Part shown: positions 36,082 through 57,074 of the stretch, piece by piece
Position numbering within the stretch: the stretch's first letter is position 1
How the letters are laid out: each line of letters starts with the position of its first letter
NCBI GenBank assembly: GCA_015660865.1
Contig: JACTUA010000005.1
Location: 104,790 to 168,789 of the forward strand
From: Methanomicrobiales archaeon
Lineage (GTDB): Archaea > Halobacteriota > Methanomicrobia > Methanomicrobiales > JACTUA01
Direction: 5' to 3'
Length of the DNA stretch: 64,000 nucleotides
Translations under genes and position numbers: made by a program
The notes under the pieces: generated by a model
Told to the model about the DNA's origin: nothing
The model's database searches: none
The model's input: only the letters and a program-made list of their open reading frames with translations

Positions 36082-36345
36082 ATGCCCTTTACCCTCATCT
36101 ATACCTCCCGGGCCCTGAAAGACCTGGAGAACTTATCCAGAGCGGTGAACAGGAGGATTGTCATGACGCTCGAGCGGCTGGCGGAGGAGGATGATCCGGA
36201 ATGGTCGGTGAAGCGTTTACAGGACTCCCCCCTCTATTCACTCCGCGTGGGACCATACCGTGTCATCCTGGATATCCGGCGGGAGAAGATTACCATCTTC
36301 GTCCTTCGGGCCGGGCCGAGGAGGACCGTTTACCGTGACCTTTGA
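36082..36345 (+). CDS. relE: RelE/ParE-family toxin
   Basis: RALKDLENL..YSLRVGPYRVI..GPRRTVY. Confidence 0.85.
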   Translation: MPFTLIYTSRALKDLENLSRAVNRRIVMTLERLAEEDDPEWSVKRLQDSPLYSLRVGPYRVILDIRREKITIFVLRAGPRRTVYRDL

Positions 36346-37348
36346 AGGAAACCCGAGGCATGGTCAGATCCGTGCCATCATCTTCGACATGGACAACACC
36401 CTCTTTGACTTCGTCGCGGCGAAGCAGCACGCCTGCCGGGAGGTCGCGAAGTTCCTCGGCCGGGACGACTGGGAGGCGCTCTTCTCCTGCTTCCTCAACT
36501 CCCCCCACGGCTTCGAGAGCCACGAGAACATCAAAGACTACTTTGACCTCTGCGGTTTACTGGAGGAGTGCAGTGCCAAACAGAATCCCGGTATGCCGGG
36601 TGAAAGACAGGACGGTTCCCCGAGGACCTGCTCCATTACAGGTGAAGGATGCAACCCGGGGAGGATCCGCGATGAAGAAGGAGAAGAAAGGGGCAATTTT
36701 CCCGGGGAACCCCCTTCTCCTGGGAAGAAAATTCCGCCAGCCACTTCCCCTCCCCATGATCAGAGAAATGGGCAGCTCCCGTCCGCCTGCGGCGGCTCCT
36801 TCACATGGGAGGTGCATTCAACCCAGCCCTCCAGCAAGGAAACCAATCCCGTGGGATCAGGGAATCTCCTCGCCGACAAGTCCCTCTACTGCAACGAGGT
36901 CTTCTCCCGCTGCTGCACTATTTACGAGGCCGAGAAGGTCCGAGTACTTTCGCCCTACCCCGGCGTCCGCGAGACCCTCGGGGAACTGAAGCGGCGGGGC
37001 TTTCCCCTGGCAATCGTTACCGATGCGTACAACGGGAACGCCCTCGCCCGGCTCCGGAAGACGGATCTTTTTGATTTCTTTGATTTCATTATTTCTTACG
37101 ATATGACCGGTGCGAAGAAGCCGGCGCCGGATGCGTTTTTGTTAGCGTTGAAGAAATTGGAGACTTTGCCGTCAGAGACTTTACTTGTCGGCGATAGCCT
37201 TAGGCGGGATATTGCACCAGCTCAAGCGCTAGGGATGATTACGGCGTATGCAGCTTATGGAGACCGGAATGTCCGGACTGGCGATCCCCCTAACTGCCGG
37301 CCGGATTATGTCCTGACGAATATTGAGGAGATGGTGGGGTTGGTGTAA
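36335..37348 (+). CDS. HAD-superfamily hydrolase with ~110-aa low-complexity insertion
   Basis: IIFDMDNTL (motif I), IVTD (II), KKPAP (III), VGDSLRRDI (IV); GTG start at 36335 assumed. Confidence 0.8.
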   Translation: MTFEGNPRHGQIRAIIFDMDNTLFDFVAAKQHACREVAKFLGRDDWEALFSCFLNSPHGFESHENIKDYFDLCGLLEECSAKQNPGMPGERQDGSPRTCSITGEGCNPGRIRDEEGEERGNFPGEPPSPGKKIPPATSPPHDQRNGQLPSACGGSFTWEVHSTQPSSKETNPVGSGNLLADKSLYCNEVFSRCCTIYEAEKVRVLSPYPGVRETLGELKRRGFPLAIVTDAYNGNALARLRKTDLFDFFDFIISYDMTGAKKPAPDAFLLALKKLETLPSETLLVGDSLRRDIAPAQALGMITAYAAYGDRNVRTGDPPNCRPDYVLTNIEEMVGLV

Positions 37349-37810: not shown

Positions 37811-37847
37811 AAGACAATTTATAATGTTACAGGCCGGAATAGTACGT

Positions 37848-39005
37848 ATGGATACGTACTCTGAGAACAGAGCGGGTGTTTTTGTTCACCAGGACGGGGG
37901 ATATGACACATTTATCCCGCGCCCGTTACCTCCAAGAGGCCTGGATCTTGATGAGGGCCTATTATTCCTGCTTTCAAAGGCTGATAGTGCACTGGCACGC
38001 CTGGATGGTGTCACCCAGGTCCTCCCGAACCCCGACCTGTTCGTCGCGATGTACGTGAAGAAAGAGGCGCTTTTGAGTTCCCAGATCGAGGGTACGCAGG
38101 CCTCGCTCCAGGGTGTCCTGGAATTCGAAGCCCATATGAAACCGAGAGATGATATCAACGAGATACGGGAAGTCCTGAATTACATCAAGGCCCTGCATCA
38201 CGGCATCGAGAAGCTGGAATTTTCAGAGGTATCTCTCGATTTGATCCACGAGATCCACAGGTTCCTGATTAAGGGAACCAGAGGGACGCACAGGCTCCCC
38301 GGTCAGCTCCGGAGGGTACAGAACTGGATAGGCCTTCACGGAGGCACGATCCATGATGCCGTATTCATTCCCCCGCCACCGGAGAAAGTCCCGGAGTTGA
38401 TGGGAGACCTGGTACAGTTCATCCAGGCCGGAGACAAAACTCCGACCCTCGTCAAGGCCGCACTCATCCATGCCCAGTTCGAGACGATCCATCCTTACCT
38501 GGATGGAAACGGGAGAATGGGAAGATTACTGGTAACCTTTTACCTCTGTAGTGAAGGCGTATTATCGAGACCCCTCTTATACCTGAGTTATTACCTGAAG
38601 AAGAACCGCGAGAGGTACTATTCACTCCTCAACGAGGTCCGGCACCAGGGAAACTGGGAGGCCTGGCTGGAGTTCTTCTTCCAGGGGGTCATCGAGGTCT
38701 CCGGCAACTCGATCGAGACTGCAAAGCGGATCATCCAGCTGAAGGGCGAGTTGATCGAGAAGCTCCTGGAGAGCAATATCAGCGGCGTTCATGCAGTCAA
38801 ACTGGTGGACGACCTGTTTGATCATCCGGTCATGACCATTGCACAGGCTGCCGATGCCCTGAGGATCAGCCGCCAGGCGGCCACGAAACTGGTGGGTAAA
38901 TTCGAGAGAATCGGCATCTTAAAGGAGATCACCGGAAAGGAGCGGTATAAAAGGTATCTCTTTATCGACTATGTGAAGATCATCGAGGAAGGTACGCGAA
39001 CCTGA
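37848..39005 (+). CDS. fic: Fic family protein (class II, N-terminal inhibitory helix, C-terminal HTH)
   Basis: SSQIEG inhibitory motif, HPYLDGNGRMGR Fic motif, C-terminal TIAQAADALRISRQAATKLV HTH. Confidence 0.92.
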   Translation: MDTYSENRAGVFVHQDGGYDTFIPRPLPPRGLDLDEGLLFLLSKADSALARLDGVTQVLPNPDLFVAMYVKKEALLSSQIEGTQASLQGVLEFEAHMKPRDDINEIREVLNYIKALHHGIEKLEFSEVSLDLIHEIHRFLIKGTRGTHRLPGQLRRVQNWIGLHGGTIHDAVFIPPPPEKVPELMGDLVQFIQAGDKTPTLVKAALIHAQFETIHPYLDGNGRMGRLLVTFYLCSEGVLSRPLLYLSYYLKKNRERYYSLLNEVRHQGNWEAWLEFFFQGVIEVSGNSIETAKRIIQLKGELIEKLLESNISGVHAVKLVDDLFDHPVMTIAQAADALRISRQAATKLVGKFERIGILKEITGKERYKRYLFIDYVKIIEEGTRT

Positions 39006-39124
39006 TGAATTCCAGCCGGGCACAAGCCCGTCTTCCCGGATAAAAAGACCGAAAAAGACCTTCACAGAAGAGTTCCCCTACCCCCGCATCCCCGAGACCC
39101 ACCTTCCCGATTCTCCCCACAGCA

Positions 39125-39530
39125 GGGTCCTGGAGCCCTGCCCCCTTATCCCTGAGACCCTGACGGAACTCAGGTGGCGGGGCTTTCCCATGGCCGTCGT
39201 CACCGATGCGCACAACGGGAACGCCCTCGCCCGGCTCCGGAAAACGGATCTTTTCTGCTATTTTGATTATGTAATTTCTTATGATATGACCGGCGCGAAG
39301 AAGCCGGCGCCGGATGCGTTCCTGCTGGCGTTGAAGATGTTACAGACGTTGAATCGTCGGAGACGTTACTTGTTGGAGATAGCCTCAGACGGGATATCGC
39401 ACCCGCACAGATGGGAATGATTACGGCGTATGCGAAATACGGAGATCGGAATATACGGACCGGCGATCCACCTACCTGCCGGCCGGATTATGTGCTCACG
39501 ACCATCGAGGAGCTGGTGGGGTTGGTGTAA
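39125..39530 (+). pseudogene. Frameshifted duplicate of the 3' half of the HAD gene
   Basis: Aligns with 36938-37348 (VVTDAHNGNALARLRKTD..YDMTGAKKPAPDAF..GGGTTGGTGTAA); lacks motif I; frameshift near 39351. Confidence 0.85.
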
Positions 39531-39615
39531 ATGTGATGTACGCGTTAAAATATACTCCAAATTATAAAAAATAAACTTCCAAAAACTTATATCAAACTTC
39601 CACATATGCTAATTT

Positions 39616-40758
39616 ATGACGTCTTCTTTCCTTAAGGAAATCAGTACCATAGATTCATATAATTATAATTTTCCTGCAATCCGTGGTATCCAAGCTGGGA
39701 GAGAATATTACCTCTCAATGTGCCCGTTAAAGCTAATCCCGAAAATCTTTCTGTACGATGAATCTTCGCTTCCAGCCCAGTTGAGAGCACAACGTACCTT
39801 AAATCATGCAAGGATACCAGAAATTGCTAATTATATTGTAAATAATCCAAAGGACTATGTTTTTTCCGCAATCTCTGCCTCAATCAGTGGTGCACCGGTC
39901 AAATTTATTCCAGCGGGGGACAACGGTATGGAAACCAAAATCGGAGCGATCGTTATACCGATGGATGCCCAATTTATCATCAATGATGGGCAGCATCGGC
40001 GAGCTGCGATTGAGGCTGCCCTCAAAGAGCGACCCGAACTAGGTAATGAAGCCATTGCAGTGGTATTTTTTATCGATGCCGGTTTAAAACGAAGCCAGCA
40101 AATCTTTTCCGATCTCAACCGCCACGCAATCCGGCCCACCAAATCAATTAGTATCCTTTATGATTACCGAGATCCCTTTGCACGGTTTGTGTTGGATCTT
40201 GCAGATACACTTCCTATTTTCAAAGGCATTACTGAGCTCGAAAAGACCAGCATATCTAATCGTTCCACCAAAATGTTCACATTATCCAGCATTTATCAGG
40301 CAACAGCTGAACTTCTGGGGAAGAAGAGGAAAATAAAAAAAGTTACTCCCGATGAGAGCACCATCGCGCAGGAATTTTGGATAGAGGTAACTACAAACAT
40401 TCCAGAATGGGAACAATTGATTAAACAAACTGTATTGAGCAGTGAACTCAGAACTGAATTTGTCCACGCACATGGTATCGCTCTCCATGCACTTGGGATT
40501 GCTGGACATGCACTTATCAAGATATACCCTCATGATTGGAAAGAGCAGTTAAAAATGCTGCAATTGATAAATTGGTCCCGCTCAAATGAGCAGATATGGG
40601 AAGGACGTGCGATGAATAACGGGAGAATTTCCAAAGCGCATATGAACCTTACCCTAACAACAAACTATCTCAAACAGATAATGAAAATACCACTCACTGC
40701 TGAGGAAACCAGGATGGAGAAAAGATTCCTGAAACAAAATCCCGAGCATGCGTTATGA
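39616..40758 (+). CDS. dndB: DNA sulfur modification protein DndB (DGQHR domain)
   Basis: FPAIRGIQAGREYY, RAQRTLN, INDGQHRRAAI, QQIFSDLN. Confidence 0.92.
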   Translation: MTSSFLKEISTIDSYNYNFPAIRGIQAGREYYLSMCPLKLIPKIFLYDESSLPAQLRAQRTLNHARIPEIANYIVNNPKDYVFSAISASISGAPVKFIPAGDNGMETKIGAIVIPMDAQFIINDGQHRRAAIEAALKERPELGNEAIAVVFFIDAGLKRSQQIFSDLNRHAIRPTKSISILYDYRDPFARFVLDLADTLPIFKGITELEKTSISNRSTKMFTLSSIYQATAELLGKKRKIKKVTPDESTIAQEFWIEVTTNIPEWEQLIKQTVLSSELRTEFVHAHGIALHALGIAGHALIKIYPHDWKEQLKMLQLINWSRSNEQIWEGRAMNNGRISKAHMNLTLTTNYLKQIMKIPLTAEETRMEKRFLKQNPEHAL

Positions 40759-42212
40759 TCCAGCATACGCTCAATGGCAAACCAATGTCTGTCTTTGATG
40801 GAAAAGGGCTGGAAAACATCCATCATGAGATTCGGGAAGTCTATCTTAGTGACAACCGGCCATGGGTAATAGGGTATAGCGGGGGAAAAGATTCGACGAC
40901 CGCGCTTCAGCTCGTTTGGTATGCATTATCTGAACTTCCCGAAGAAAAGCGAACTAAACCGGTCTTTGTCATCTCTTCGGATACGCTCGTTGAGACTCCA
41001 GTGATTGTGGATTATATCACCACGACGCTTGAAAGAATCAATAAAAAAGCAATTGAAACAGAGATGCCTTTTAAAGCGGTAAAGCTGTATCCACGAATTT
41101 CTGATTCTTTCTGGGTAAATTTAATCGGGAAGGGATATCCAGCACCAAGTACTCAGTTCCGTTGGTGTACCGAGCGGTTAAAAATTAAAACTGCCGATCG
41201 GTTTATTCTTGAAAGTGTAACAAAATTTGGAGAAGTTGTTCTTATTTTGGGGGTGCGGAAGGGAGAGAGTGCAACACGAGATCAGGTAATGAATCTGTAT
41301 AAAATACAAGGCTCGAAGCTCTCTCATCACTCACGGTTCCCTCAGTCATATGTTTATACACCCATCGAGGATTTTACGGTTAATGACGTTTGGACATATC
41401 TTTTACAGAAACCCTCCCCCTGGGGCAACAATAACAGGGATCTCGTCGCCCTCTATAAGACTGCTCAAGATGGGGAATGCCCTCTCGTCGTAGATAAGAC
41501 CACAGCGCCATGCGGTAACAGCAGGTTTGGATGCTGGGTATGTACGGTTGTCCAAAAGGATCGGAGTATGGAGGCACTTATTGAGAGTGGAGAAGAATGG
41601 CTCGAGCCGCTCCTCGAATTTCGTAACGAACTTGCAGAGACTCAGATCCCAGAGAAGAAACATTTGTACCGTGATTATCGACGAATGGACGGCAAAGTAA
41701 AAATCATGAAAAAGGGAGATGGCCTGGAAATAATCCGCGGACCATACACACTTGATATTTCAAAGAAAATGTTGAGAACATTGCTGGAAGCCCAAATTAG
41801 TGTTAGGAAAAATGGGCCAAATCCGAATTTAACCTTAATTTTACCAGAAGAATTGTTCGAGATTCGGCGCATCTGGCTAACTCAACGGAGTGATTGGGAA
41901 GATTCAGTCGTTCATATCTACAAAGAAGTGACAGGTGAAAACCTCGAATGGGCGAAGGATGATCTGGGAACCTTTTCCCAGACGGAAAAAGAATTATTAA
42001 AAAATATATGCGAAGAACGTAACATACCCCTCAGGCTCGTAACGAAGTTACTCGATGTCGAACAACAATTACAGGGGATGAATAGGCGTTCATCAATTTA
42101 TATAAGAATTAATGAGGTACTCGGAGAAGATTGGATCAGTGAGGAAGAAGTAAGAAAAGTAATGGTGAAACCAGGTGCCATTGATTCCCGCCGTCATATC
42201 AAGCACATCTGA
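40755..42212 (+). CDS. dndC: DNA phosphorothioation sulfurtransferase DndC
   Basis: PWVIGYSGGKDST, SDTLVE, GYPAP, RWCTERLKI, ECPLVVD..CGNSRFGCWVCTVV. Confidence 0.93.
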   Translation: MIQHTLNGKPMSVFDGKGLENIHHEIREVYLSDNRPWVIGYSGGKDSTTALQLVWYALSELPEEKRTKPVFVISSDTLVETPVIVDYITTTLERINKKAIETEMPFKAVKLYPRISDSFWVNLIGKGYPAPSTQFRWCTERLKIKTADRFILESVTKFGEVVLILGVRKGESATRDQVMNLYKIQGSKLSHHSRFPQSYVYTPIEDFTVNDVWTYLLQKPSPWGNNNRDLVALYKTAQDGECPLVVDKTTAPCGNSRFGCWVCTVVQKDRSMEALIESGEEWLEPLLEFRNELAETQIPEKKHLYRDYRRMDGKVKIMKKGDGLEIIRGPYTLDISKKMLRTLLEAQISVRKNGPNPNLTLILPEELFEIRRIWLTQRSDWEDSVVHIYKEVTGENLEWAKDDLGTFSQTEKELLKNICEERNIPLRLVTKLLDVEQQLQGMNRRSSIYIRINEVLGEDWISEEEVRKVMVKPGAIDSRRHIKHI

Positions 42213-42218
42213 GGGTAT

Positions 42219-44252
42219 ATGCTTCTAAAATCAATCAGTATCGAAAACATTCGAATTTTCAAAGGGTCCCATACCCTTGACCTTGCACCCTTACATCAAG
42301 CTAACACCCATAAACCGATCATTTTGATCGGTGGAATGAACGGGGCTGGAAAGACCACGCTTTTTGAATCTATCTTTCTCTGTCTCTATGGGCAATATTC
42401 TCCTGGTACAAGGATAACCAAAACAAAATATGAGCATTATGTCGAACAGATGGTTGCTTGGAATAAATATTCAGAAATTCCATTAAATCCTGCAATCGAG
42501 GTGATATTCGAGTTTTCGCATGCTGGTAATACTCATACCTATACAGTCAAAAGAGAGTGGACAGTAAAACCCAGATTTATCGAAAAACTTACCGTGAGAA
42601 GAGACGGTCAGATTCTTTCAGATCTAGAAAGTGATCAATGGCAAGATCTATTAAATGAATTGATACCACCAAGATTTGCCCGGCTCTTTTTATTTGATGG
42701 GGAAAAAATTCAGAATCTCGTTGAAGATAATGCCGATAATTACTTCCTTCAAGATTCGTTTAAATCTATGCTCGGCCTCGACTTAGTTGAGAGGTTGAAA
42801 GCAGATCTAGGGATATATCTTAGCCGTTACATTAAAAGTAAAGAACTCAATCATTTTACCGAGAAATTAGAGAGTATTGATACACGGATTAGAGAAATTG
42901 AGGGGAAAAAAGATCTATGCCAGCAAGAAAAGGCACATATCCAGAGCCGGTATGATCAGATTCAAGGTGAGATCGAACGTCAAGAACAGATCCTTGCAAG
43001 TGAAGGGGGTAGTTTTGCTCGAAAGCGTGAAGAATTTAAGACCCAAAAAAACCAATTAGATCAAGAGATAACCTGGACTGAGAACGAGATCCGCAATATC
43101 TGTACTGGTTTATTCCCCTTTTCCATTACTCCAAAATATTGTACACTTCTGAAAAAGCACCTTATCGACGAAGATCAAGTTCAAACTCGCCAAAGATCTC
43201 AAGAGGCTATCCAGTTATACCTGGATGAGTTAAGAAAATCGATAGAGACATTGGCATTTTGGTCGGATCTCAAAATCTCCTCAGCACAACAAGCGAAAAT
43301 TAGGGAAAAATTCTCAGCCCTTATCAGTCAACATTTGGCCGTCAATGACCATCCCGAAAATATTCCATTAATCCATCATCTTTCCCAATACGAATATCAT
43401 AATTTATTGGAGTGGATCAGAGAAGCGACAACAAATGTCCCCAAACAAATGCATGATCTCTCCCTGCAACTTGAAAATCTCACTTTAAAACGCACGAAAT
43501 TGACAGAGAGGATTAATAAAGCTCCATCTGATGATATTATCGGTCCTTTTATCCAAAAATTGAATGAATTGCATAAGGATTTGGGACAACTCACCGAAAT
43601 GCTGAGGAAAACCGAAGAGACGATTAAAGAATTCGATCTCCAATTAATAGAACTTGAGAGACTGAAGGAAAAGCAGAATGAAGAAATTGAGGATATTAAA
43701 AGTAGCTCGGTTAAAATGAGCCTTGCCCAGCAAGTGACCCTTATCCTAAACGACTATGTAAAAGAGCTTCAACGACAGAAAATTTCACAATTAAGTGATA
43801 ATATTCTGGCATGTTTCACACGGCTGATCAGAAAAGACGATTATATAAAAGATATTGTGATCGATGAAAATTATAGCATTACCCTCTATGAACCGGATGG
43901 ACATGCGATCCCCAAAGAGCTGCTATCCGCTGGCGAGAAAGAGATATTCGCAGTCTCATTGCTCTGGGGTTTGACACTTACATCGGGGCGACAGTTGCCT
44001 TTTATTATCGACACACCTTTAGGGAGACTTGATAGTGAGCATCGGGGCAACCTTGTTATGGATTTCTTCCAGCACGCAGGAGACCAAATGATCATCTTCT
44101 CCACAGACACTGAAGTAGATAAAGAATATTTCCGAGTACTTCAACCATTTATTACTCGGGCCTACCATTTGGATTATTCGAAAAAGGAACGTCAAACAAA
44201 AATTTCTCCCGGATATTTCTGGGAGAGTGAACCTTTGGAGATCCCAACATGA
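42219..44252 (+). CDS. dndD: DNA sulfur modification ATPase DndD (SMC-like)
   Basis: GMNGAGKTT, FLFDGEKI, LSAGE, IIDTPLGRLDSEHR, STDTEV, GYFW. Confidence 0.92.
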   Translation: MLLKSISIENIRIFKGSHTLDLAPLHQANTHKPIILIGGMNGAGKTTLFESIFLCLYGQYSPGTRITKTKYEHYVEQMVAWNKYSEIPLNPAIEVIFEFSHAGNTHTYTVKREWTVKPRFIEKLTVRRDGQILSDLESDQWQDLLNELIPPRFARLFLFDGEKIQNLVEDNADNYFLQDSFKSMLGLDLVERLKADLGIYLSRYIKSKELNHFTEKLESIDTRIREIEGKKDLCQQEKAHIQSRYDQIQGEIERQEQILASEGGSFARKREEFKTQKNQLDQEITWTENEIRNICTGLFPFSITPKYCTLLKKHLIDEDQVQTRQRSQEAIQLYLDELRKSIETLAFWSDLKISSAQQAKIREKFSALISQHLAVNDHPENIPLIHHLSQYEYHNLLEWIREATTNVPKQMHDLSLQLENLTLKRTKLTERINKAPSDDIIGPFIQKLNELHKDLGQLTEMLRKTEETIKEFDLQLIELERLKEKQNEEIEDIKSSSVKMSLAQQVTLILNDYVKELQRQKISQLSDNILACFTRLIRKDDYIKDIVIDENYSITLYEPDGHAIPKELLSAGEKEIFAVSLLWGLTLTSGRQLPFIIDTPLGRLDSEHRGNLVMDFFQHAGDQMIIFSTDTEVDKEYFRVLQPFITRAYHLDYSKKERQTKISPGYFWESEPLEIPT

Positions 44253-44635
44253 ACTTTAACAGGGTTCGCATCAGTACGAGTGCAACAATCCGTTTGAAGC
44301 AATTACAAATTCGGACTGGGCTAACGCCTAACATTCTCTCCAGAATTGCAATCTGTTATTCGCTTAACGATCCTGCAATCCCCAATCCCAACGACTACGA
44401 TGAAAGGGGGATGGAGATGAACCGATTTACCCTCACAGGAGATTGGGATTCCTTTTTCATAGCTTTAGTCATGGAACGTTGCATTCAAGATGGACTAGAT
44501 CCCGAAAAAGATCTCGCTGATCAGTTACGTGCACATCTCAATAGAGGCGTATACGGAATATTCTCACGAATCAAAGGATTAGGGGATTTCCAATCATTAC
44601 TCACCCAGGAGGCCCCGGGAATCAAAACAAGTTAA
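44249..44635 (+). CDS. dndE: DNA sulfur modification protein DndE
   Basis: LKQLQIRTGLTPNILSRIAICYSL..AHLNRGV. Confidence 0.9.
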   Translation: MNFNRVRISTSATIRLKQLQIRTGLTPNILSRIAICYSLNDPAIPNPNDYDERGMEMNRFTLTGDWDSFFIALVMERCIQDGLDPEKDLADQLRAHLNRGVYGIFSRIKGLGDFQSLLTQEAPGIKTS

Positions 44636-44652
44636 TGTGTGAGATGTGATCT

Positions 44653-45816
44653 ATGGAAATTAAACGCCCGATATACATGGATTATCATGCGACGACTCCC
44701 GTTGACCCTCGAGTTCTCGAAACGATGCTCCCTTATTTTTCCGACTTATTTGGGAATGCGGGAAGTATTGACCATCTATTTGGGGCGACTGCAGCCGATG
44801 CAGTGAAAAAAGCCCGTGATCAGTCCGCTCACATTCTCAATGCTCATTCTGATGAGATAATCTTCACAAGTGGCGCAACGGAATCAAATAACATTGCAAT
44901 CCTAGGCGTTGCGAAACAATACGCTGAAAAGGGGGATCATATCATAACCTGTGCGACAGAGCATAAGGCAGTTCTCGACACCTGTAAATATCTCCAGAAA
45001 ATCGGAAAAACCGTCACATTTCTTCCCGTTGATCAGTATGGATTGATTGATGTTGCCCAGCTCGAATCTGCCATTACCGACAGGACTATTCTTATAACAA
45101 TCATGTCAGCGAACAATGAGATCGGGACTATCGCTCCAATAAAAGAGATCGGAAAGATTGCTCATGATAATAGAGTTATTTTCCACACAGATGCAGCCCA
45201 GGCTGTTGGTCACTTCATGATTGATATTGAAGCAATGAATATCGATCTCCTCTCTTTTTCAGGTCACAAAATTTACGGACCGAAAGGGATTGGTGGGTTA
45301 TACATCAGACGGAGAAATCCGAAAGTAAAACTCACTCCCATTATCTTTGGGGGCGGGCAAGAGAAGGGCCTTCGATCCGGAACATTGAATGTACCCGGGA
45401 TCGTGGGGTTTGGGAAGGCACTCGCAATTGCAGAGAAAGAAATGAAAGACGAGGATGAGCGATTCCGGAAATGGACGCTGGAAATGTTTGATGCATTCAA
45501 AGAATTATTTCCTTCTCTGCTTTTAAATGGGCATCCGACCAAACGGCTTGCTCACAATTTGAATGTTTGTTTCCCTGGCATTGAAAGCAAAGCATTGATC
45601 CATCTATTGAAAGACGATCTTGCAATTTCTTCTGGTTCCGCATGTACGACCACGAGCGTCGAACCATCGCATGTGCTAAGAGCAATAGGCGTTCCCGAAG
45701 ATTTAATCCATTCCGCAATCCGATTTGGAATTGGTAGATTTAATACTAAGGAAGAAATTAAGTTTGTTGTCGAAAGGGTTACATCAAGTATAAATAAATT
45801 GATAAATATTAGGTAA
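44653..45816 (+). CDS. dndA: Cysteine desulfurase DndA/IscS
   Basis: YMDYHATTP, HTDAAQA, SGHKIYGPKG, SSGSACT; in the dnd operon. Confidence 0.88.
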   Translation: MEIKRPIYMDYHATTPVDPRVLETMLPYFSDLFGNAGSIDHLFGATAADAVKKARDQSAHILNAHSDEIIFTSGATESNNIAILGVAKQYAEKGDHIITCATEHKAVLDTCKYLQKIGKTVTFLPVDQYGLIDVAQLESAITDRTILITIMSANNEIGTIAPIKEIGKIAHDNRVIFHTDAAQAVGHFMIDIEAMNIDLLSFSGHKIYGPKGIGGLYIRRRNPKVKLTPIIFGGGQEKGLRSGTLNVPGIVGFGKALAIAEKEMKDEDERFRKWTLEMFDAFKELFPSLLLNGHPTKRLAHNLNVCFPGIESKALIHLLKDDLAISSGSACTTTSVEPSHVLRAIGVPEDLIHSAIRFGIGRFNTKEEIKFVVERVTSSINKLINIR

Positions 45817-45923
45817 TTTTTCTTATGCATTTTTATAATTAAATGATAATGATAATCTTTTTATAAAAACAAAGAAAATAAGATTTAATAATTACATGAT
45901 AATTAGAGAGTGATAGCGATAAG

Positions 45924-48059
45924 ATGTCATTGGACTCTTTGGATCTAAAATATTCTTATGATTCTGATGAAGACGATATTCTGAATGATTTTTATATTCC
46001 CGCCTTGTCTAATGCTATATCTTATAAAAGAATTTCTGGTTTTTTTTCATCTAATGCTCTGGCTATCGCAGCTAGGGGGATAGCATATTTTATTAAAAAT
46101 GATGGCGATTTTCGCCTAATCACTAGTGTACAATTATCGGAAGAAGATTTTACGAAGATAAAAGAAACTACACAGAATCAGATGTTGTTTTATCTGGAAG
46201 AGAAATTTTTAGAAGAGGTTGATGCATTAGAAAATGAGTTGATGAGAGATCATGTAAAAATGATGGGTTGGATGCTGAAAACGGGGCATTTGGAAATGAA
46301 AATTGCATTAACTGCAGGAGGGATACAACATCAAAAGATTGGTATTTTTGAGGGCAATGAAGGTCACACTGTATCATTTAGTGGTTCGGATAATGAAACA
46401 AAGAAAGGATGGATTGATAATATTGAGGAATTCCATGTTTTTTGTTCTTGGCGTCAGAATGAAATGGAACATATTAATGACATAACCAGAAGATTTGATA
46501 AATATTGGCATGATAAAGCACAGAGGGCCCGAGTATTTCCGATTAGTGAGGCAATAAAAGATAAATTGATTAAAATTGCTCCAAAAGATGATGATGAATT
46601 TGAGACGTTATCCCTTGATACTACAAGGAATCTCCTTGCGAAGCATAAGGATAGTATAACGAAGAGAAAGAAGCAGGCGGGACCTATTTCAAATAATAAA
46701 AATAAGTATTTGAGTTTAAGAAACTATCAAAAAGATGCCGTCGATGCTTGGTTTGAAAATAAGAGAAAAGGAATTTTCGAGATGGCTACCGGAACAGGGA
46801 AAACAGAAGCTGCAATTGGTGTAATTGACCGTTTGATAAATTCCAAAGAGAAAATTATAATTATTATCACTGTTTGGGGGCAGTCTCTTTTAGAGCAATG
46901 GATAAATAAATTAAAATTTTATGGTTATGGTGTTAAAGGTGCTTCTTCGGATCAAAGATATTCAAATTGGCAAGAAGAATTAGGGAGAGATATCTTAAAC
47001 GTTTCTTGCGGTTATCGAAATCATTCAATCGTTGTTACAACGTATCAAACATTCTCTTCCAAGAAATTTACTGATTTGATACAAAAAATGCAAGGAAATG
47101 TTCTCCTTATCTGTGATGAAGTTCACCACGTTGGAGCTCCGGAACTTCAAAAAGGCCTTGTTGAAAACTATAATTTCCGTCTAGGTTTAAGTGCAACGCC
47201 CGATCGTTGGTTCGACGAAATTGGAACAGCACTAATCAGATCATATTTCGATAAAACAGTCTATGAATTTTCGATGAAAAAGGCCATGGATGAAATTAAT
47301 CCAGATACTGGAAAACCATATTTATGTTCTTATAAATATTATCCAATTCTTGTTGAACTGAGCGCCGAAGAAAATGAAGAATATATTAAATTAACTAAGG
47401 AGATTGGAAGAAGATATCATACTACTAAACTGCGGAAAATTGATGATGAAAAATTAACAGGATTACTTATCAAGAGATCAAACATTAAGAATAATGCTCA
47501 TGCAAAATATGACGAATTAAAAATAATTGTTCCGAGATTTATAAATCAAATGAATTATTGTCTTATCTATTGTTCAGGAAAACAAATGGATTACATAAAA
47601 TTACTATTGAACCAATATAAAATCATTTATCACGAATTCACTCAATATACAACCCCTAAAATTCGTCAAGATATATTGTTAAAATTTGAAGAGGGGAGAA
47701 AATCTGGAGGATATGATGTTCTATTGGCAATAGATTGCCTAAATGAAGGAATAGATATCCCCTCTGCCCGCATGGGAATATTTTTAGAGAATAGTCAAAA
47801 TCCAATAGAGTTTATACAAAGAAGAGGGAGATTATTACGACCCCATGCAGACAAAAAAGAAGCAATATTATTCGATTTTATCGTTATCCCCAATTTTTAC
47901 GGATTAGAGGAAAACTATAAAGAACTTGAAAAACGAGAACTCCAAAAGGAGTATAATCGATTGGTTGAATTCGCAAAATTAGCAAAAAACACTCAGGAAG
48001 CTCTTAAAGTCATGGAAAAAATTGCCGATGAATATAACCTCGTTGTGATGAATGGGTGA
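45924..48059 (+). CDS. pbeA: PLD-like nuclease + SF2 DEAD/H helicase (PbeA-like)
   Basis: HQKIGIFE..SGSDNET PLD-like motif; MATGTGKT, DEVHH, LGLSATP, QRRGRLLR; position after dndA. Confidence 0.75.
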   Translation: MSLDSLDLKYSYDSDEDDILNDFYIPALSNAISYKRISGFFSSNALAIAARGIAYFIKNDGDFRLITSVQLSEEDFTKIKETTQNQMLFYLEEKFLEEVDALENELMRDHVKMMGWMLKTGHLEMKIALTAGGIQHQKIGIFEGNEGHTVSFSGSDNETKKGWIDNIEEFHVFCSWRQNEMEHINDITRRFDKYWHDKAQRARVFPISEAIKDKLIKIAPKDDDEFETLSLDTTRNLLAKHKDSITKRKKQAGPISNNKNKYLSLRNYQKDAVDAWFENKRKGIFEMATGTGKTEAAIGVIDRLINSKEKIIIIITVWGQSLLEQWINKLKFYGYGVKGASSDQRYSNWQEELGRDILNVSCGYRNHSIVVTTYQTFSSKKFTDLIQKMQGNVLLICDEVHHVGAPELQKGLVENYNFRLGLSATPDRWFDEIGTALIRSYFDKTVYEFSMKKAMDEINPDTGKPYLCSYKYYPILVELSAEENEEYIKLTKEIGRRYHTTKLRKIDDEKLTGLLIKRSNIKNNAHAKYDELKIIVPRFINQMNYCLIYCSGKQMDYIKLLLNQYKIIYHEFTQYTTPKIRQDILLKFEEGRKSGGYDVLLAIDCLNEGIDIPSARMGIFLENSQNPIEFIQRRGRLLRPHADKKEAILFDFIVIPNFYGLEENYKELEKRELQKEYNRLVEFAKLAKNTQEALKVMEKIADEYNLVVMNG

Positions 48060-48244
48060 TGTTCATGAAAAAGAAAATGAATACAAGGATCCTCAAAAAA
48101 ATTGAAGATTCAGATCTAGATACTCCAATCAAGGAATTGCTCGTTGATATTATGGAATTTGAATCTCAATGGGTTAAGGGGAGTAGTTATTCTGAGTACT
48201 ATCGAAAAAAAATTGAAAAGGCAATTGCTATAAGGAGAACTTAA
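48056..48244 (+). CDS. pbeB: Small protein (PbeB-like)
   Basis: 62-aa ORF coupled between helicase and ATPase genes (IKELLVDIMEFE..YSEYY..I); assignment by position. Confidence 0.55.
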   Translation: MMFMKKKMNTRILKKIEDSDLDTPIKELLVDIMEFESQWVKGSSYSEYYRKKIEKAIAIRRT

Positions 48245-48245
48245 T

Positions 48246-50222
48246 ATGACAAAAATAATGAATATTACTATTGAGAATTTTCGCCCGTTTTTTGGGATAA
48301 ATAATTTAGAATTCTCATCCGACAGTAATAAGAATTTTAATGTGGTTTTTGCCGGAACTGGGAGTGGAAAAACCTCTGTATTGGACGCCATTTCGTGGTG
48401 TTTATTTGGAAAAGAGTATCACAAACAGCTACCCAAAGATACCTTACTAAATGATAAAAAACGGGATGAATTAAAGAAAGAAAAAATTGCTGATGTTCGT
48501 GTAGAAATAATAATGGGGGAAAAGCAAAATAACATTGAATTCATTTTCAATAGAAAAATATCATTTATAAAAAAATCGGATAAAAGCGTGACAATTTTAC
48601 CTTCTTCAGAAAAATTTCATGCAAAACTTAAGGATGCACGTAATAATTTAATCGATGCTGCAGATCCGAGCGTTGTTGTAAATTGGGTATTTCCTGAGAG
48701 AATTCATCATCTCTTTATGTTTGATGGCGAAAAGCTACAGGATTTTTTTGAAACCGATAATATCAAAAATACAGAACATGCGATCAAAGACATTACACAA
48801 ATGGATCAACTCGACAACGCCGTAGCACATTTAATTCATAGTTCAAAGGAATTTTTAACGAAAGAAGAGATGACCGATCCCCAAATACAACAACTAGAGG
48901 ATTTCATTGACAGTGTTCGAAAACGAGTTCAAGATAATCGTCTTGAGGAAGAATCAAGAAAAATTTCTTTAGAAGAAGCTAAAAAGGCGTTCGAAGCGGC
49001 AGATGAACAATTGAAAAGAATTGATTTTGATGATAAAGGACTTTTAGAAGAAGAGAGATCGATTCAGGGAAGAATAAGCAATTCGGAATTAAAAATAAAA
49101 GAAATTGAAATTAACCGATTTCATCACTTATTACAAGGAATCCCTACGATATTCTGCAAGAAAGAATTAGAGAGAGCAGTTCAAAAAATCGACAAGAAGT
49201 ATGAATCAGGTGAATTGCCTTCTGATGTCAAAGTTGAATTTATTAATAAATTACTGGAAAAACAAAGATGTATTTGTAAAACGCCACTCATAAAAGGGTC
49301 AGAGGCACGAAAATTTGTTGAAGCTTATAAAAATGCTGCCCCACTCTCAAACTATGAGGACGAAATCAGACACGGACAAGCTGAAATCAAATCAATGCTA
49401 AAAGAAATAAACCAATTTTTTGAGAAACGTGTAGATTATTATAAACAACTAGAAGAGACGAAACAATCATTGGATGATGATAAACAGAGATTTGAAAGTA
49501 TTAAAAAGAAAACTGAAAGTATAAATAATCCTGAAATTCAAAGATTACGATCTCTAAAAAGTTTTCATTTGGGTGAAATGCAAAGATATAATAAAGAAAT
49601 AGGGGGCATCCAAAATAAAATTTCGGAAGATGAAGACGCAATACTCAAATTGGGAAAACAAAAAATGAAGTTGGAGAAAGAATCGATTAAAAACAAAGCA
49701 ATGCGGGAAAAATACGAAATTTGTGAAAAAGCATTATCGTTTTTGGAAAACACTCAAAAAAATCTCCTGGTTGAACTTAAAAAAGATATCGAACAAAGAA
49801 CCAATTCTATTTTTAAAGAGAGCGTTATTGAGCCGAGAGTTAAGGAAGTAATCATTTCTGATTTTTATGAATGCCAAGTTCTCGATACTAGCGGATTGAA
49901 TATATACCCTACTCTTTCCAGTGGTCAAAAGCAAGGTTTGGCTACGGCCTTTATGATCGCACTACGTAGAGACTCTGGCTTCGACTCCCCGATTTTGATT
50001 GATTATCCTTTTGGTAGAATTGATCCTCGCTCCACAGCAGAATTTATTGATGTGTTGAAAAAAATATTAGCTGACGTTCAGGTGATTTTCTTTTTAATTG
50101 AAGGGAAAGAATATAGTGACTCTGTGAAAGCTCAAATGCAAGATCGTTTAGGATCACTATATGAAATTTGTAAATTAAAAGATGAGAAAATGAGTGAGGT
50201 GATTAAGCATGCCCGAAACTGA
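48246..50222 (+). CDS. pbeC: SMC/Rad50-like ABC ATPase (PbeC-like)
   Basis: ENFRPF, GTGSGKTS, FMFDGEKL, CICK hook-like motif, LSSGQ, ILIDYPFGRID. Confidence 0.75.
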   Translation: MTKIMNITIENFRPFFGINNLEFSSDSNKNFNVVFAGTGSGKTSVLDAISWCLFGKEYHKQLPKDTLLNDKKRDELKKEKIADVRVEIIMGEKQNNIEFIFNRKISFIKKSDKSVTILPSSEKFHAKLKDARNNLIDAADPSVVVNWVFPERIHHLFMFDGEKLQDFFETDNIKNTEHAIKDITQMDQLDNAVAHLIHSSKEFLTKEEMTDPQIQQLEDFIDSVRKRVQDNRLEEESRKISLEEAKKAFEAADEQLKRIDFDDKGLLEEERSIQGRISNSELKIKEIEINRFHHLLQGIPTIFCKKELERAVQKIDKKYESGELPSDVKVEFINKLLEKQRCICKTPLIKGSEARKFVEAYKNAAPLSNYEDEIRHGQAEIKSMLKEINQFFEKRVDYYKQLEETKQSLDDDKQRFESIKKKTESINNPEIQRLRSLKSFHLGEMQRYNKEIGGIQNKISEDEDAILKLGKQKMKLEKESIKNKAMREKYEICEKALSFLENTQKNLLVELKKDIEQRTNSIFKESVIEPRVKEVIISDFYECQVLDTSGLNIYPTLSSGQKQGLATAFMIALRRDSGFDSPILIDYPFGRIDPRSTAEFIDVLKKILADVQVIFFLIEGKEYSDSVKAQMQDRLGSLYEICKLKDEKMSEVIKHARN

Positions 50223-51084
50223 GGCACCTCGCGATTTAGCAATTGATAGTTCAAAACATGGATTTTATGAGCGAATTAAAAAAGGGGAATATATACCCGA
50301 ATTAAAAGGCTACGAAATGGCATATTTATTTGCCATTGCAATGGCCTATGGTGTACATTATAAAAAACGCAAACCACTACGTCCTGGCCATATTAAACGA
50401 TCAATCAGCAGGAATATGATCGATAAAGAATTTTCTTGGCTAATAAGGGCTATTGCTATAAGTGCGTTGGATGAAGGCGTGGACATCATTCCCGATCGCA
50501 CTCAAATCTATAAAATTGCTGAAGAATACGCAAATGGCGGTATTGAAATTATTGAAGAGGAAATAACAAATATCAAACAATTTGAGTTGGATATGGAGTT
50601 AGAATTAAATAAAATAATGGGTGAAATTGCCTCAAAAACCGAAAAAACGGATAAAATACAAACGATTCCTATTCAACCAAAACATGAATTAGAATCCATG
50701 CTCGATGCTTTCGAGGTTAGAATTCGAAAATTCATTGATAGCAAACTGACAGAGAATAAAGCCGATTATTGGTCTGATATTAATTTGGATTTCAAAAAAG
50801 ATATTGATCAGAGAATTCGGGATTATCTTGTAAAGAATCCATCATTAAATTCAGAGGATATTAAGCCCCTTGAATTTTTTACGATGGGAGAATATTATAA
50901 AATTATGAAATTTTATTGGATGGTGTTTGAATCTATTTTTAGATCTAAGACCGAGCTGGAGAAACATTTTCGAAATATCAATGAATTACGAAATTGCTTT
51001 AAACATGTTCGTGAACCAACTATTACAGAAAAGAAATTAGGGGAAGCTTCATTAATTTGGTTCGAAACAATACTAAATAAATAA
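50209..51084 (+). CDS. pbeD: PbeD-like N-terminal domain fused to a Swt1-like HEPN domain
   Basis: N-half LFAIAMAYG..IAEEYANGGIEII; C-half FEVRIRKFI..LEFFTMGEY..LRNCFKH (RxxxxH). Confidence 0.6.
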   Translation: MPETEAPRDLAIDSSKHGFYERIKKGEYIPELKGYEMAYLFAIAMAYGVHYKKRKPLRPGHIKRSISRNMIDKEFSWLIRAIAISALDEGVDIIPDRTQIYKIAEEYANGGIEIIEEEITNIKQFELDMELELNKIMGEIASKTEKTDKIQTIPIQPKHELESMLDAFEVRIRKFIDSKLTENKADYWSDINLDFKKDIDQRIRDYLVKNPSLNSEDIKPLEFFTMGEYYKIMKFYWMVFESIFRSKTELEKHFRNINELRNCFKHVREPTITEKKLGEASLIWFETILNK

Positions 51085-51267
51085 AAACCAAAATTTATTA
51101 GAATTGTGGTATTATTCGAGCCACCAATCCCCATAATTTATGAATTCTGACTCTATTGAGCTCGATAATCTGTTCGATCAGTCTTCTCCCGCCCGAATAA
51201 ATAATCTGGATGGACAGACATTAATATATACAAATACCTCATCGCTCTCGAAAAAACGGATACCGCC

Positions 51268-51918
51268 ATGCGCTCCCTCCTCATCCTCAGCGGCGGGGTG
51301 GACAGCACCACCCTGCTGTACGATCTGCTCCACCAGGGGTACGAAGTAGAGGCCGTCACCTTCGACTACGGCCAGAAACACAAGAAAGAGATCGAGTTCG
51401 CGAGGAAGACCTGCAAGAAACTGAACGTCCCCAATTCCGTCCTGGATCTCAAAATCCTAAACGAGGTCGCCCCGTCCAGCCTGACAAGGGACTCCTGGGA
51501 GGTCCCCGAAGGGCACTACACCGAGGATTCGATGAAGCAGACCGTGGTCCCGAACAGGAACATGATCTTCCTCTCCGTTGCAGCGGCCCGGGCCATCGCG
51601 GGCGGCATCCCGCACCTCTTCTACGCGGCCCACTCGGGGGACCATGCCATCTACCCGGACTGCAGGCCGGCCTTTGTGAGCGCCATGGAGACGGCCCTGC
51701 ACCTCTGCGACTGGACCGATATCACCCTCCATGCCCCGTACCTGAACCTCACCAAGGCCGATATCGTGAAGCTGGGCACCGGGCTCGGGGTCGATTACTC
51801 CCTCACCTGGACCTGCTACCGGGGAGAGAGACTCGCCTGCGGGTTGTGCGGCTCCTGCACGGAGCGGCTGGAGGCGTTCAGGATAGCGGGAGTGGAGGAC
51901 CCGTTAACCTATGGTTAA
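51268..51918 (+). CDS. queC: 7-cyano-7-deazaguanine synthase
   Basis: LSGGVDSTT, FDYGQKH, VPNRN, YPDCR, TWTCY..CGLCGSC. Confidence 0.93.
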   Translation: MRSLLILSGGVDSTTLLYDLLHQGYEVEAVTFDYGQKHKKEIEFARKTCKKLNVPNSVLDLKILNEVAPSSLTRDSWEVPEGHYTEDSMKQTVVPNRNMIFLSVAAARAIAGGIPHLFYAAHSGDHAIYPDCRPAFVSAMETALHLCDWTDITLHAPYLNLTKADIVKLGTGLGVDYSLTWTCYRGERLACGLCGSCTERLEAFRIAGVEDPLTYG

Positions 51919-52016: not shown

Positions 52017-52108
52017 ATCCAATCGGAAGGTGAGTAGCTTGCGAATTCTTCTTCCGGTAATCTCAACCCTCATATAGGGCATCGCCCCAATCCTGATCTT
52101 GACCATTG

Positions 52109-52429
52109 ATGAGGAAAAATCAGATCTTCTCGGGGAAACCATCCCTTGAGGAAATCCAGGCAATACTCCGCAAGCACCTGCCGGAGCTGAGGCGGGAGTA
52201 TGGGGTCAGGTCTCTGGGCATCTTCGGTTCCTATACCCGCGGGGATGCAAAGAAGGGGAGTGACCTGGATATCCTCGTCGAATTCGAGAGGATCGGGACG
52301 CTCCTCGAATATATCCGGCTGGAGGATACCCTCACCGATCTACTGGGTGTGAAAGTCGATCTGGTGGACCGATCCACGCTGAAACCCGGCATCAAATCCC
52401 GGATCCTGCGTGAGACCATCCCTCTATGA
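52109..52429 (+). CDS. MNT nucleotidyltransferase antitoxin (MntA)
   Basis: [23 protein letters not shown]. Confidence 0.88.
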
Positions 52430-52791
52430 AACCCGGCAGGAGCTACCGGATTTATCTGGAAGACATGCTCCGGGCAACTGAGAAGGCGCTCTCATTCACC
52501 GAGGGAATCGAATATCCCGCCTTTGAGAGGGACGACGAGAAGATCTTCGCCGTCACTCATGCGGTCGAGATCATCGGGGAAGCGGCAAAGCAGGTGCCGG
52601 CACAGATTAGGAACCGTTATCCGGAGATACCCTGGAAACAGATAGCAGGTATGCGGGACAAGCTCATCCACGCTTATTTCGATGTGCATACCCGCCGGCT
52701 ATGGGAAACCGTCAGGGAAGACCTGCCTGGGCTCCGATCCGCCCTCATCCAGATCCTCAAGGATGAAGGAGAGGACAAACCAGACGTGTGA
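52426..52791 (+). CDS. HEPN (DUF86/HepT) toxin
   Basis: [26 protein letters not shown] (RxxxxHxY). Confidence 0.88.
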
Positions 52792-52811
52792 CCCTTTCCC
52801 GGGTTATTGTC

Positions 52812-53105
52812 CGCGGCCCACTCGGGGGACCATGCCATCTACCCGGACTGCAGGCCGGTCTTTGTGAGCGCCATGGAGACGGCCCTCCACCTCTGCGACT
52901 GGACCGATATCACGCTCCATGCCCCCTACCTGCACCTCACCAAGGCCGATATCGTGAAGCTGGGCACCAGGCTCGGGGTCGATTACTCCTTACCGGGACC
53001 TGCTACAGGGGAGAGGCCCTCGCCTGCGGGTTGTGCGGCTCCTGCACGGAGAGGCTGGAGGCGTTCCGGATCGCCGGGATCGAGGACCCGGTGGAGTACG
53101 GGTGA
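52812..53105 (+). pseudogene. Frameshifted duplicate of the 3' part of queC
   Basis: Near-identical to 51624-51918 ([28 protein letters not shown]); single-base loss near 52990; no 5' half. Confidence 0.9.
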
Positions 53106-56961: not shown

Positions 56962-57074
56962 TGCTGCGGGCGGGAATCGAGCCCGCGATCTCCAGATATC
57001 CCAGATGATGGCGCTCCGACGTTTTCGCGAAAACCCTATGAGTCTGGCGCCCTAACCGGCTAGGCCACCGCAGC
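56962..57074 (-). tRNA. tRNA-Met(CAT) with 39-nt intron at position 37/38 (56998-57036)
   Basis: GCTGCGGTGGCCTAGCCGGTTAGGGCGCCAGACTCATA[intron]ATCTGGAGATCGCGGGCTCGATTCCCGCCCGCAGCA. Confidence 0.92.

Follow-up and report, generated by a model that had tools for sequence, protein, structure and literature searches.

Why would PbeD, normally a small protein with a single domain of about 140-150 amino acids (aa), carry a HEPN domain, and what could that domain add to a PbeABCD cassette? The question is raised by the last gene of a dndBCDEA-pbeABCD row in a Methanomicrobiales archaeon (assembly GCA_015660865.1, contig JACTUA010000005.1; the 64,000 nucleotides (nt) from 104,790 to 168,789 of the forward strand are called the window here and are numbered from 1). 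We find that its 291-aa product, PbeD-HEPN, joins a PbeD/DndE-like domain to a Swt1/Abi2-type HEPN domain with a conserved Rx4H motif, that its gene occupies the syntenic pbeD position in a cassette that retains pbeA, and that the same architecture recurs in other loci. We hold it fairly probable, taking the explanation as a whole, that this is the PbeD of a PbeABCD system whose HEPN domain sits on a flexible tether and would cut RNA when unmarked DNA is met.

The dnd-pbe row is complete, co-directional and tightly packed, with pbeD-HEPN at its end (Table 1). The gene order that defines PbeABCD is present (PbeA, a small open reading frame (ORF), PbeC, PbeD), with the five dnd genes (dndB, C, D, E and A) just upstream of it. 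The ATG of pbeD-HEPN overlaps the stop codon of pbeC by 14 nt, and the same overlap is found in the syntenic locus L001. This locus (from an Aenigmatarchaeota metagenome-assembled genome, MAG) and L002 (from a Nanobdellati MAG) share the gene order and have near-identical gene lengths, with a standalone PbeD; their PbeA and PbeC proteins are 54-56% and 48-49% identical to those of the window. An ORF downstream of pbeD in L002 was considered as a counterpart of the HEPN half and proved unrelated to it. PbeD-HEPN is present as a single copy in its 1.94-Mb genome. Its upstream partner PbeC had been called SMC-like in a sequence-only reading of the window; it is instead a CxC-type coiled-coil ABC ATPase, with the CxC motif (RCICK) at aa 342-344, near the middle of the protein, and LSSGQ at aa 557.

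A PbeD-like domain with the DndE fold

The N-terminal half of the protein matches TIGR04062 (dnd_assoc_4, the NCBIfam model of the fourth Pbe protein) over aa 40-131 with an E value of 5e-8 and 33.2 bits, a weak similarity that lies under the curated cut-off of 74.25; the PADLOC PbeD match is likewise below the curated level (1.5e-3). All nine other PbeD-position proteins that we tested also fell under the TIGR04062 cut-off (26-63 bits), and the cut-off therefore appears to be too strict for this fast-evolving family. The DndE/PbeD family is reported to evolve rapidly (PMC10853773), and the low profile scores of the N-terminal half fit that report. Its closest relatives are standalone PbeD proteins of 131-146 aa, 58-69% identical, that are encoded in the same pbeA-B-C-D order, including that of L001 (63%).

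An AlphaFold2 model of the full protein, built from a 93-row alignment, has a mean predicted local distance difference test score (pLDDT) of 92.7 and shows a strand-helix-helix unit twice (aa 9-50 and 62-120), a helix at aa 122-146, a linker at aa 147-157 and an all-helical region at aa 158-290. The predicted template modelling score of the whole model is 0.52, which indicates no fixed orientation between the N- and C-terminal domains. VIA-align superposes the N-terminal part on DndE (7x4e, Z 9.5, root-mean-square deviation 3.4 over 109 residues; 5wtu, Z 8.5), and a Foldseek search with the whole model returned DndE 4lrv at probability 0.99, though with an E value of 0.18. DndE homologues have two ribbon-helix-helix (RHH) units followed by a C-terminal helix that has been proposed to contact the ABC ATPase, and PbeD has been described as the DndE cognate of the CxC-type ABC ATPase PbeC (PMC10853773). 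The N-terminal half is thus a PbeD-like, tandem double RHH domain with the DndE fold.

A HEPN domain with a conserved Rx4H motif

The uninterrupted ORF contains the peptides EEYANGG, FEVRIRKFI and LRNCFKH, the last of which includes the Rx4H motif characteristic of HEPN domains. It did not arise as a random match, for R261 and H266 are kept without exception by the 11 close homologues, by all rows of a 12-row alignment that includes distant fusions, and by 60 of 60 relatives of the C-terminal domain. In the 60-row set N262, R268 and a number of aromatic residues of the core almost never vary, while E169 and R173 of the first helix are invariant in the 12-row alignment, and the R/H motif persists at about 25% identity. 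Variants of the motif in fused loci (RNCLKH, RNDIAH, RNNIAH and RPEKAH) always keep the R and the H. The Pfam family HEPN_Swt1 (PF18731) was matched by all 11 close homologues at E values of 1 or less (best 4.1e-7), and its cut-off was passed by the distant fusions L013 (56.1 bits), L064 (51.9) and P0161 (45.4); P0025, a phmmer relative of the query (3.1e-21), scores 29.8 bits. The best PADLOC match of the domain is the candidate model PDC-M34B, at 1.5e-10 for the query and 2.1e-26 for L013.

A separate model of aa 156-291 reached a pLDDT of 94.9, and HEPN proteins lead its VIA-align list: PbAbiF with its non-coding RNA (ncRNA; 8vz6) at Z 8.9 over all 136 residues, the C-terminal domain of yeast Swt1 (4pqz) at Z 7.0 and the HEPN region of AbiA (8oz7) at Z 6.7, followed by Roquin, Csm6, Cas13bt and MNT-HEPN toxins; Z scores of 7-9 are within the range in which the tool advises caution for common helical arrangements. 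A profile search of the sequences of solved structures with the C-domain alignment returned nothing below an E value of 0.086. We regard the HEPN assignment as secure; the case for it comes mainly from the sequence matches and the motif, and the fold list backs it up. The sequence-only reading had described a two-part protein with a linker, a PbeD-like N-terminal half and a Swt1-like HEPN domain with an intact motif, and it had taken PbeD to be normally small and single-domain; each of these points is borne out by the profile, synteny and conservation evidence.

By the conservation of its motif the HEPN domain is probably RNA-cutting. It might alternatively be a non-nuclease, acting as a sensor that binds RNA or nucleotides, or regulating PbeCD as a dimerisation module. 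Inactive HEPN domains do exist, eukaryotic Swt1 being thought inactive and proposed to bind RNA (PMC3710099), and the sequence and fold matches of the query itself are modest. Such inactive domains typically lose the motif, however, whereas here the R/H pair is invariant and its neighbours nearly so, down to the low identities noted above. A non-catalytic role is less likely given this pattern, and we consider it quite improbable.

The relatives of the HEPN domain are found in varied company. Among 44 proteins scanned, 17 carry GmrSD_N/DUF262, four TPR, three YaaA, one an AAA ATPase and one a helicase fragment; four have only HEPN_Swt1 and 14 have no Pfam match at 1e-4. These fusion partners form a pattern that would be expected of a mobile conflict-system effector. 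The GmrSD_N relatives (P0016, P0018, P0021, P0025 and others) are about 600-1250 aa long with HEPN at or near the C-terminus, and some also carry DUF5655, EVE, HNH or DUF4357.

The fusion is genuine and recurs

A fusion of two domains in a single MAG gene could be an assembly or frameshift artefact that joined two genes, a possibility that we regard as negligible here. Metagenome contigs from three runs span 49800-51200 with no differences and no gaps; the window DNA itself may stem from these runs. A fourth run, which carries no such flag, contributes a piece that reaches across the linker (50507-50673). A word-indexed search returned 10 full-length homologues of 289-297 aa with 55-58% identity, and the same architecture is present in more distant proteins, while a split form is absent from the 115 pbeD loci described below.

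Searching 1.84 billion representatives exhaustively with phmmer yielded 443 matches at E values of 1e-3 or less, which fall into three groups: N-domain-only proteins of about 110-150 aa, C-domain matches within proteins of many lengths, and rows spanning both halves. Among the matches listed, both halves are spanned by P0031, P0032, P0051, P0060, P0092 and P0103, with 28-31% identity. A search for longer homologues with an N-domain profile returned six proteins, at low power according to the tool's own warning.

We then surveyed the C-termini of pbeD genes, as the sequence-only reading had suggested, in 115 loci collected with N-domain peptide patterns (35 loci from species genomes and 80 from metagenomes), a set that retains duplicates and is biased to N-domain relatives. 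The N domain was matched in 111 of these loci, and pbeC lies directly upstream in 99 of the 111. HEPN is fused to PbeD in 19 of the 115 loci, 18 identified by hidden Markov model (HMM) and motif in the ORF and one (L112) that is cut at its 5′ end. In all 18 of the former, pbeC is directly upstream of the fusion; pbeA is seen in 14, the contigs of the other four being cut, and at least one dnd gene is present in the flank of 11. Of the 12 fused loci with a full-length pbeA, 11 encode a PbeA with an intact HxK motif; the strict HKD pattern is unfit for comparing fused with unfused loci, since 36 of 58 unfused PbeA proteins escaped it despite retaining GSxN. A six-frame scan of the 115 loci with the C-domain HMM found no standalone HEPN gene beside an unfused pbeD.

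HEPN is not the only domain found at this place. In some PbeD homologues encoded directly after pbeC, the unrelated Schlafen AlbA_2 domain occupies the C-terminal position: L067 (1122-2084, 1.9e-20), L080 (439-1380, 1.9e-24), L105 (378-1310, 3.8e-18) and the protein P0162 (8.4e-22). This suggests that the C-terminus of PbeD is a swappable domain slot. The PbeD-HEPN fusion is a rare but recurring variant.

History of the fusion

In an N-domain tree of 96 unique sequences, made by a quick method from a short alignment, the HEPN label needs seven changes, at least five of which are forced by well-supported branches, and fused forms occur in three supported clades. Because of these label changes, we infer that the HEPN add-on was gained or lost repeatedly. 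The 138-row tree of C domains places 15 fused rows in a clade of their own (support 98) and nests a 12-row clade that includes the window protein (support 95) among the HEPN domains of GmrSD_N and TPR proteins. However, the hypothesis that 27 fused rows make up one clade withstood an approximately unbiased (AU) test (difference in log-likelihood 3.0, p-AU 0.443, with P0051 omitted), so that one as well as several acquisitions of HEPN by PbeD are compatible with the data despite the split in the free tree. Convergent fusion of HEPN to PbeD is accordingly not claimed, since the test allows one clade.

Proposed mechanism

In the explanation that we favour, PbeD, a DNA-binding double RHH protein, would bind PbeC through its C-terminal helix, placing two PbeD subunits on each PbeC dimer; DndE-type proteins have been proposed to associate one per ABC ATPase subunit, in a 2:2 unit (PMC10853773). 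The PbeCD complex would engage invader DNA that lacks phosphorothioate (PT) marks, and a conformational change of the ATPase would then pair the two tethered HEPN domains to form the composite active site usual for HEPN proteins. The paired domains could cut RNA either locally, on nascent invader transcripts or primers, or globally, leading to growth arrest. This RNA-level output would add to that of the HKD-helicase PbeA, which is kept in fused loci. In the published system protection requires pbeD, and Pbe brings the replication of the virus to a stop while its DNA is not degraded (Xiong 2019, PMC6459918). A later comparative analysis, by contrast, made the case that PbeA cleaves DNA.

Several points weigh against this explanation. 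No inhibitor or antitoxin is apparent for what would be a constitutively tethered RNase, and eukaryotic Swt1 HEPN domains are, as noted, thought inactive. The query itself reaches only 14.4 bits (E 0.047) against the HEPN_Swt1 cut-off of 27.5, the VIA-align scores call for the caution given with them, and Foldseek searches against the PDB found no HEPN match, either for the C-domain model (E values above 1) or for the whole protein. No dnd gene is seen in the flanks of seven of the 18 fused loci, although for two of them the flanks are long. In L107 (5890-6620) a 177-aa pbeD is followed by a 68-aa open stretch that matches the start of HEPN (E 1.7e-9), and the N domain of this pbeD product hardly differs from the N domains of the fused loci L084 and L086; this close relative thus carries a decayed fusion. 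Finally, 76 of the 96 unique N domains have no extra domain, and since most PbeD proteins lack one, an RNase appears not to be needed for Pbe function.

The HEPN domain might instead be a fail-safe suicide effector, silent until an invader inhibits or dismantles PbeCD and then degrading host RNA indiscriminately. Such a role has been proposed for the standalone HEPN and PIN genes that edge ABC-DndE neighbourhoods and for HEPN-DndF (PMC10853773), and conserved active-site residues would suit it equally well. In the window, by contrast, HEPN is joined covalently to a core subunit, with which it is always co-translated; it is not a boundary gene, and no separate guard or antitoxin is in view. We think this role rather unlikely, although the present data fit it as well as they fit RNA cleavage triggered by unmarked DNA.

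A broader version of the tethered-effector explanation is possible but, to us, doubtful: PbeC-PbeD may be a general platform for sensing DNA modification, with the PbeD C-terminus as an effector slot that takes HEPN or Schlafen AlbA_2, and unmarked DNA would drive ATP-dependent pairing of HEPN domains and RNA cleavage. Under such a scheme the RNAs that are cut could be transcripts emerging from the invader DNA or the primers of its replication. If true, it would amount to a DNA-guided mode of restriction that acts at the RNA level, and it would help to explain how canonical Pbe blocks replication without cutting viral DNA.

Relation to known systems

In Haloterrigena jeotgali A29, whose DndCDEA-PbeABCD system has been published (PMC6459918), PbeD is, like the window protein, the product of the fourth pbe gene, encoded directly after pbeC and next to dnd genes, and both have a small DndE-like domain; in H. 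jeotgali it is essential for protection. The two differ in that the H. jeotgali protein is 152 aa long without an extra domain, whereas the window protein has 291 aa and a HEPN domain. With the DndE cognates that are associated with CxC ABC ATPases (PMC10853773), the window protein shares the two tandem RHH units, the C-terminal helical extension and the coiled-coil ABC ATPase partner. In the DndE-ABC neighbourhoods described there, HEPN and PIN are standalone genes at the edge, and the accessible portion of that paper mentions no DndE-HEPN fusion; in the window the two are fused. Another parallel is HEPN-DndF of DndFGH, in which a HEPN endoRNase on a PT-linked restriction subunit has been proposed as a co-effector, but HEPN is carried at the N-terminus of DndF (PMC10853773) rather than at the C-terminus of PbeD.

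The C-terminal domain resembles the Swt1/Abi2 HEPN clade in being all-helical with an R-N-x3-H motif (PMC3710099). Bacterial members of that clade are fused to ParB/DUF262, STAND-TPR and AAA+ proteins, which matches the nearest HEPN relatives of the window protein, and PMC3710099 contains no occurrence of "dnd", "phosphorothio" or "RHH". Two members differ from what we see: the HEPN domain of yeast Swt1 is probably inactive, and AbiF works with an ncRNA, of which none is evident near the window gene (no ncRNA was found there by Rfam). PDC-M34B is a candidate-system model without a description, and one preprint that we examined has nothing on it.

PbeABCD itself, PbeD as a DndE cognate, and HEPN co-effectors in PT-linked systems (DndF and boundary genes) are already published, so the feature is a variant of a published system and not a new system, for which the sequence-only reading had named it the best candidate. 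That reading knew of no description of the coupling. HEPN domains in PT-linked restriction are in fact on record, as the DndF fusions and boundary genes show. We found no description of a PbeD-HEPN, DndE-HEPN or DndE/PbeD-Schlafen fusion in the accessible literature on PbeABCD, DndE and HEPN; the supplementary tables of PMC10853773, which give domain architectures of thousands of neighbourhoods, may contain one. Precomputed Pfam labels already mark both domains on such proteins (PF27807 and PF18731). The feature is the PbeD subunit of an already known defence cassette, extended by an effector-type domain. The mechanism that this implies is plausible, and the domain make-up suggests that some Pbe systems also attack RNA.

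A natural PbeD-HEPN variant could offer a handle on what the PbeCD module senses and how the signal is passed on. The Schlafen AlbA_2 domains in the same slot and the HEPN lineage on GmrSD-type enzymes point to a shared theme, namely an RNA-directed second layer placed on sensors of DNA modification.

The dnd-pbe island and its surroundings

Table 1. Genes of the dnd-pbe row and parts of pbeD-HEPN, in window coordinates
Feature	Position	Strand	Basis
dndB	39616..40758	+	Pfam DndB 4.7e-137; PADLOC DndB 4.2e-161
dndC	40755..42212	+	PADLOC DndC 3.7e-200
dndD, coiled-coil ABC ATPase	42219..44252	+	PADLOC DndD 1.4e-267
dndE	44249..44635	+	Pfam DndE 2.4e-28; PADLOC DndE 8.3e-53
dndA, cysteine desulfurase	44653..45816	+	PADLOC DndA 2.1e-167
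pbeA, HKD/PLD nuclease fused to SF2 helicase	45924..48059	+	PADLOC PbeA 2.1e-215; ResIII + Helicase_C
Small ORF in pbeB position, 62 aa	48056..48244	+	46% identity to same-position ORF of L002 (tblastn 2e-9)
pbeC, CxC-type coiled-coil ABC ATPase, 658 residues	48246..50222	+	PADLOC PbeC 2e-87
pbeD-HEPN fusion gene, 291 aa	50209..51084	+	Uninterrupted ORF
PbeD/DndE-like domain, two RHH units (aa 9-120) and C-terminal helix (aa 122-146)	50209..50646	+	TIGR04062, DndE fold
Flexible linker, aa 147-157	50647..50679	+	pLDDT <50 at aa 149-155
Swt1/Abi2-type HEPN domain, aa 158-291	50680..51081	+	HEPN_Swt1, PDC-M34B, fold matches
RNCFKH (R261-H266), Rx4H HEPN motif	50989..51006	+	Sole RxxxxH of the 291-aa protein

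The G+C content is 32-34% in the pbe genes, 38-44% in the dnd genes and 51-63% in the surrounding DNA, and these layers (window 39000-51100) suggest that the dnd and pbe modules differ in origin or age. PbeC was found in none of 19 same-family genomes searched, several of which are incomplete, and in two of 21 other genomes of the order, at 28% and 23% identity. The dnd-pbe island is foreign to its host, its G+C content of 33-44% standing against 57-63% for the host. This origin, and the fact that HEPN toxins are common, would suit a fusion that serves as an addiction toxin, stabilising the acquired island with no role in defence. We consider this very unlikely: the fusion has no antitoxin partner, it is always a PbeD that follows pbeC (18 of 18 loci), and gain and loss of HEPN track the defence cassette and not the genes of mobile elements.

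PbeA has the motifs HQKIGIFE (aa 136) and GSDN and the helicase motif DEVH (aa 398), and the ORF in the pbeB position has no HMM match in Pfam, PADLOC or NCBIfam scans. Residues 411-456 of DndC resemble the Dnd "small protein" (Pfam Sp-DndD, 6.6e-6, just below the cut-off), and the PADLOC PbeB model matches DndC aa 414-456 at 2.4e-5; by sequence, the Dnd small protein seems to be fused to DndC in this island. A scan for promoters and terminators near the pbeD-HEPN gene gave signals at the level of shuffled sequence only.

Both edges of the island carry partial gene duplications. Just before dndB, the 39135-39530 segment repeats the 3′ end of gene 36260-37348 (copy 36952-37348) about 2.2 kb downstream of it, at 82-85% identity, with a SoFic-type Fic gene (37824-39005, PADLOC SoFic 2.2e-118) lying between the copies. 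On the other side, a duplication of the 3′ end of queC (gene at 51268-51918) has its copies at 51619-51903 and 52807-53090 (96% and 87% identity). Between these repeats lies a nucleotidyltransferase/DUF86-like gene pair (52106-52429 and 52426-52791) whose sequence features suggest an MNT-HEPN toxin-antitoxin module. In Logan, the contigs that cover the island terminate within the queC-end repeats and within the 39135-39351 repeat. Further downstream, at 56962-57074 on the minus strand, lies a 113-nt tRNA whose length suggests an intron, in turn a hint of an archaeal host; Rfam identifies it with 57.2 bits, and ARAGORN missed it in bacterial mode.

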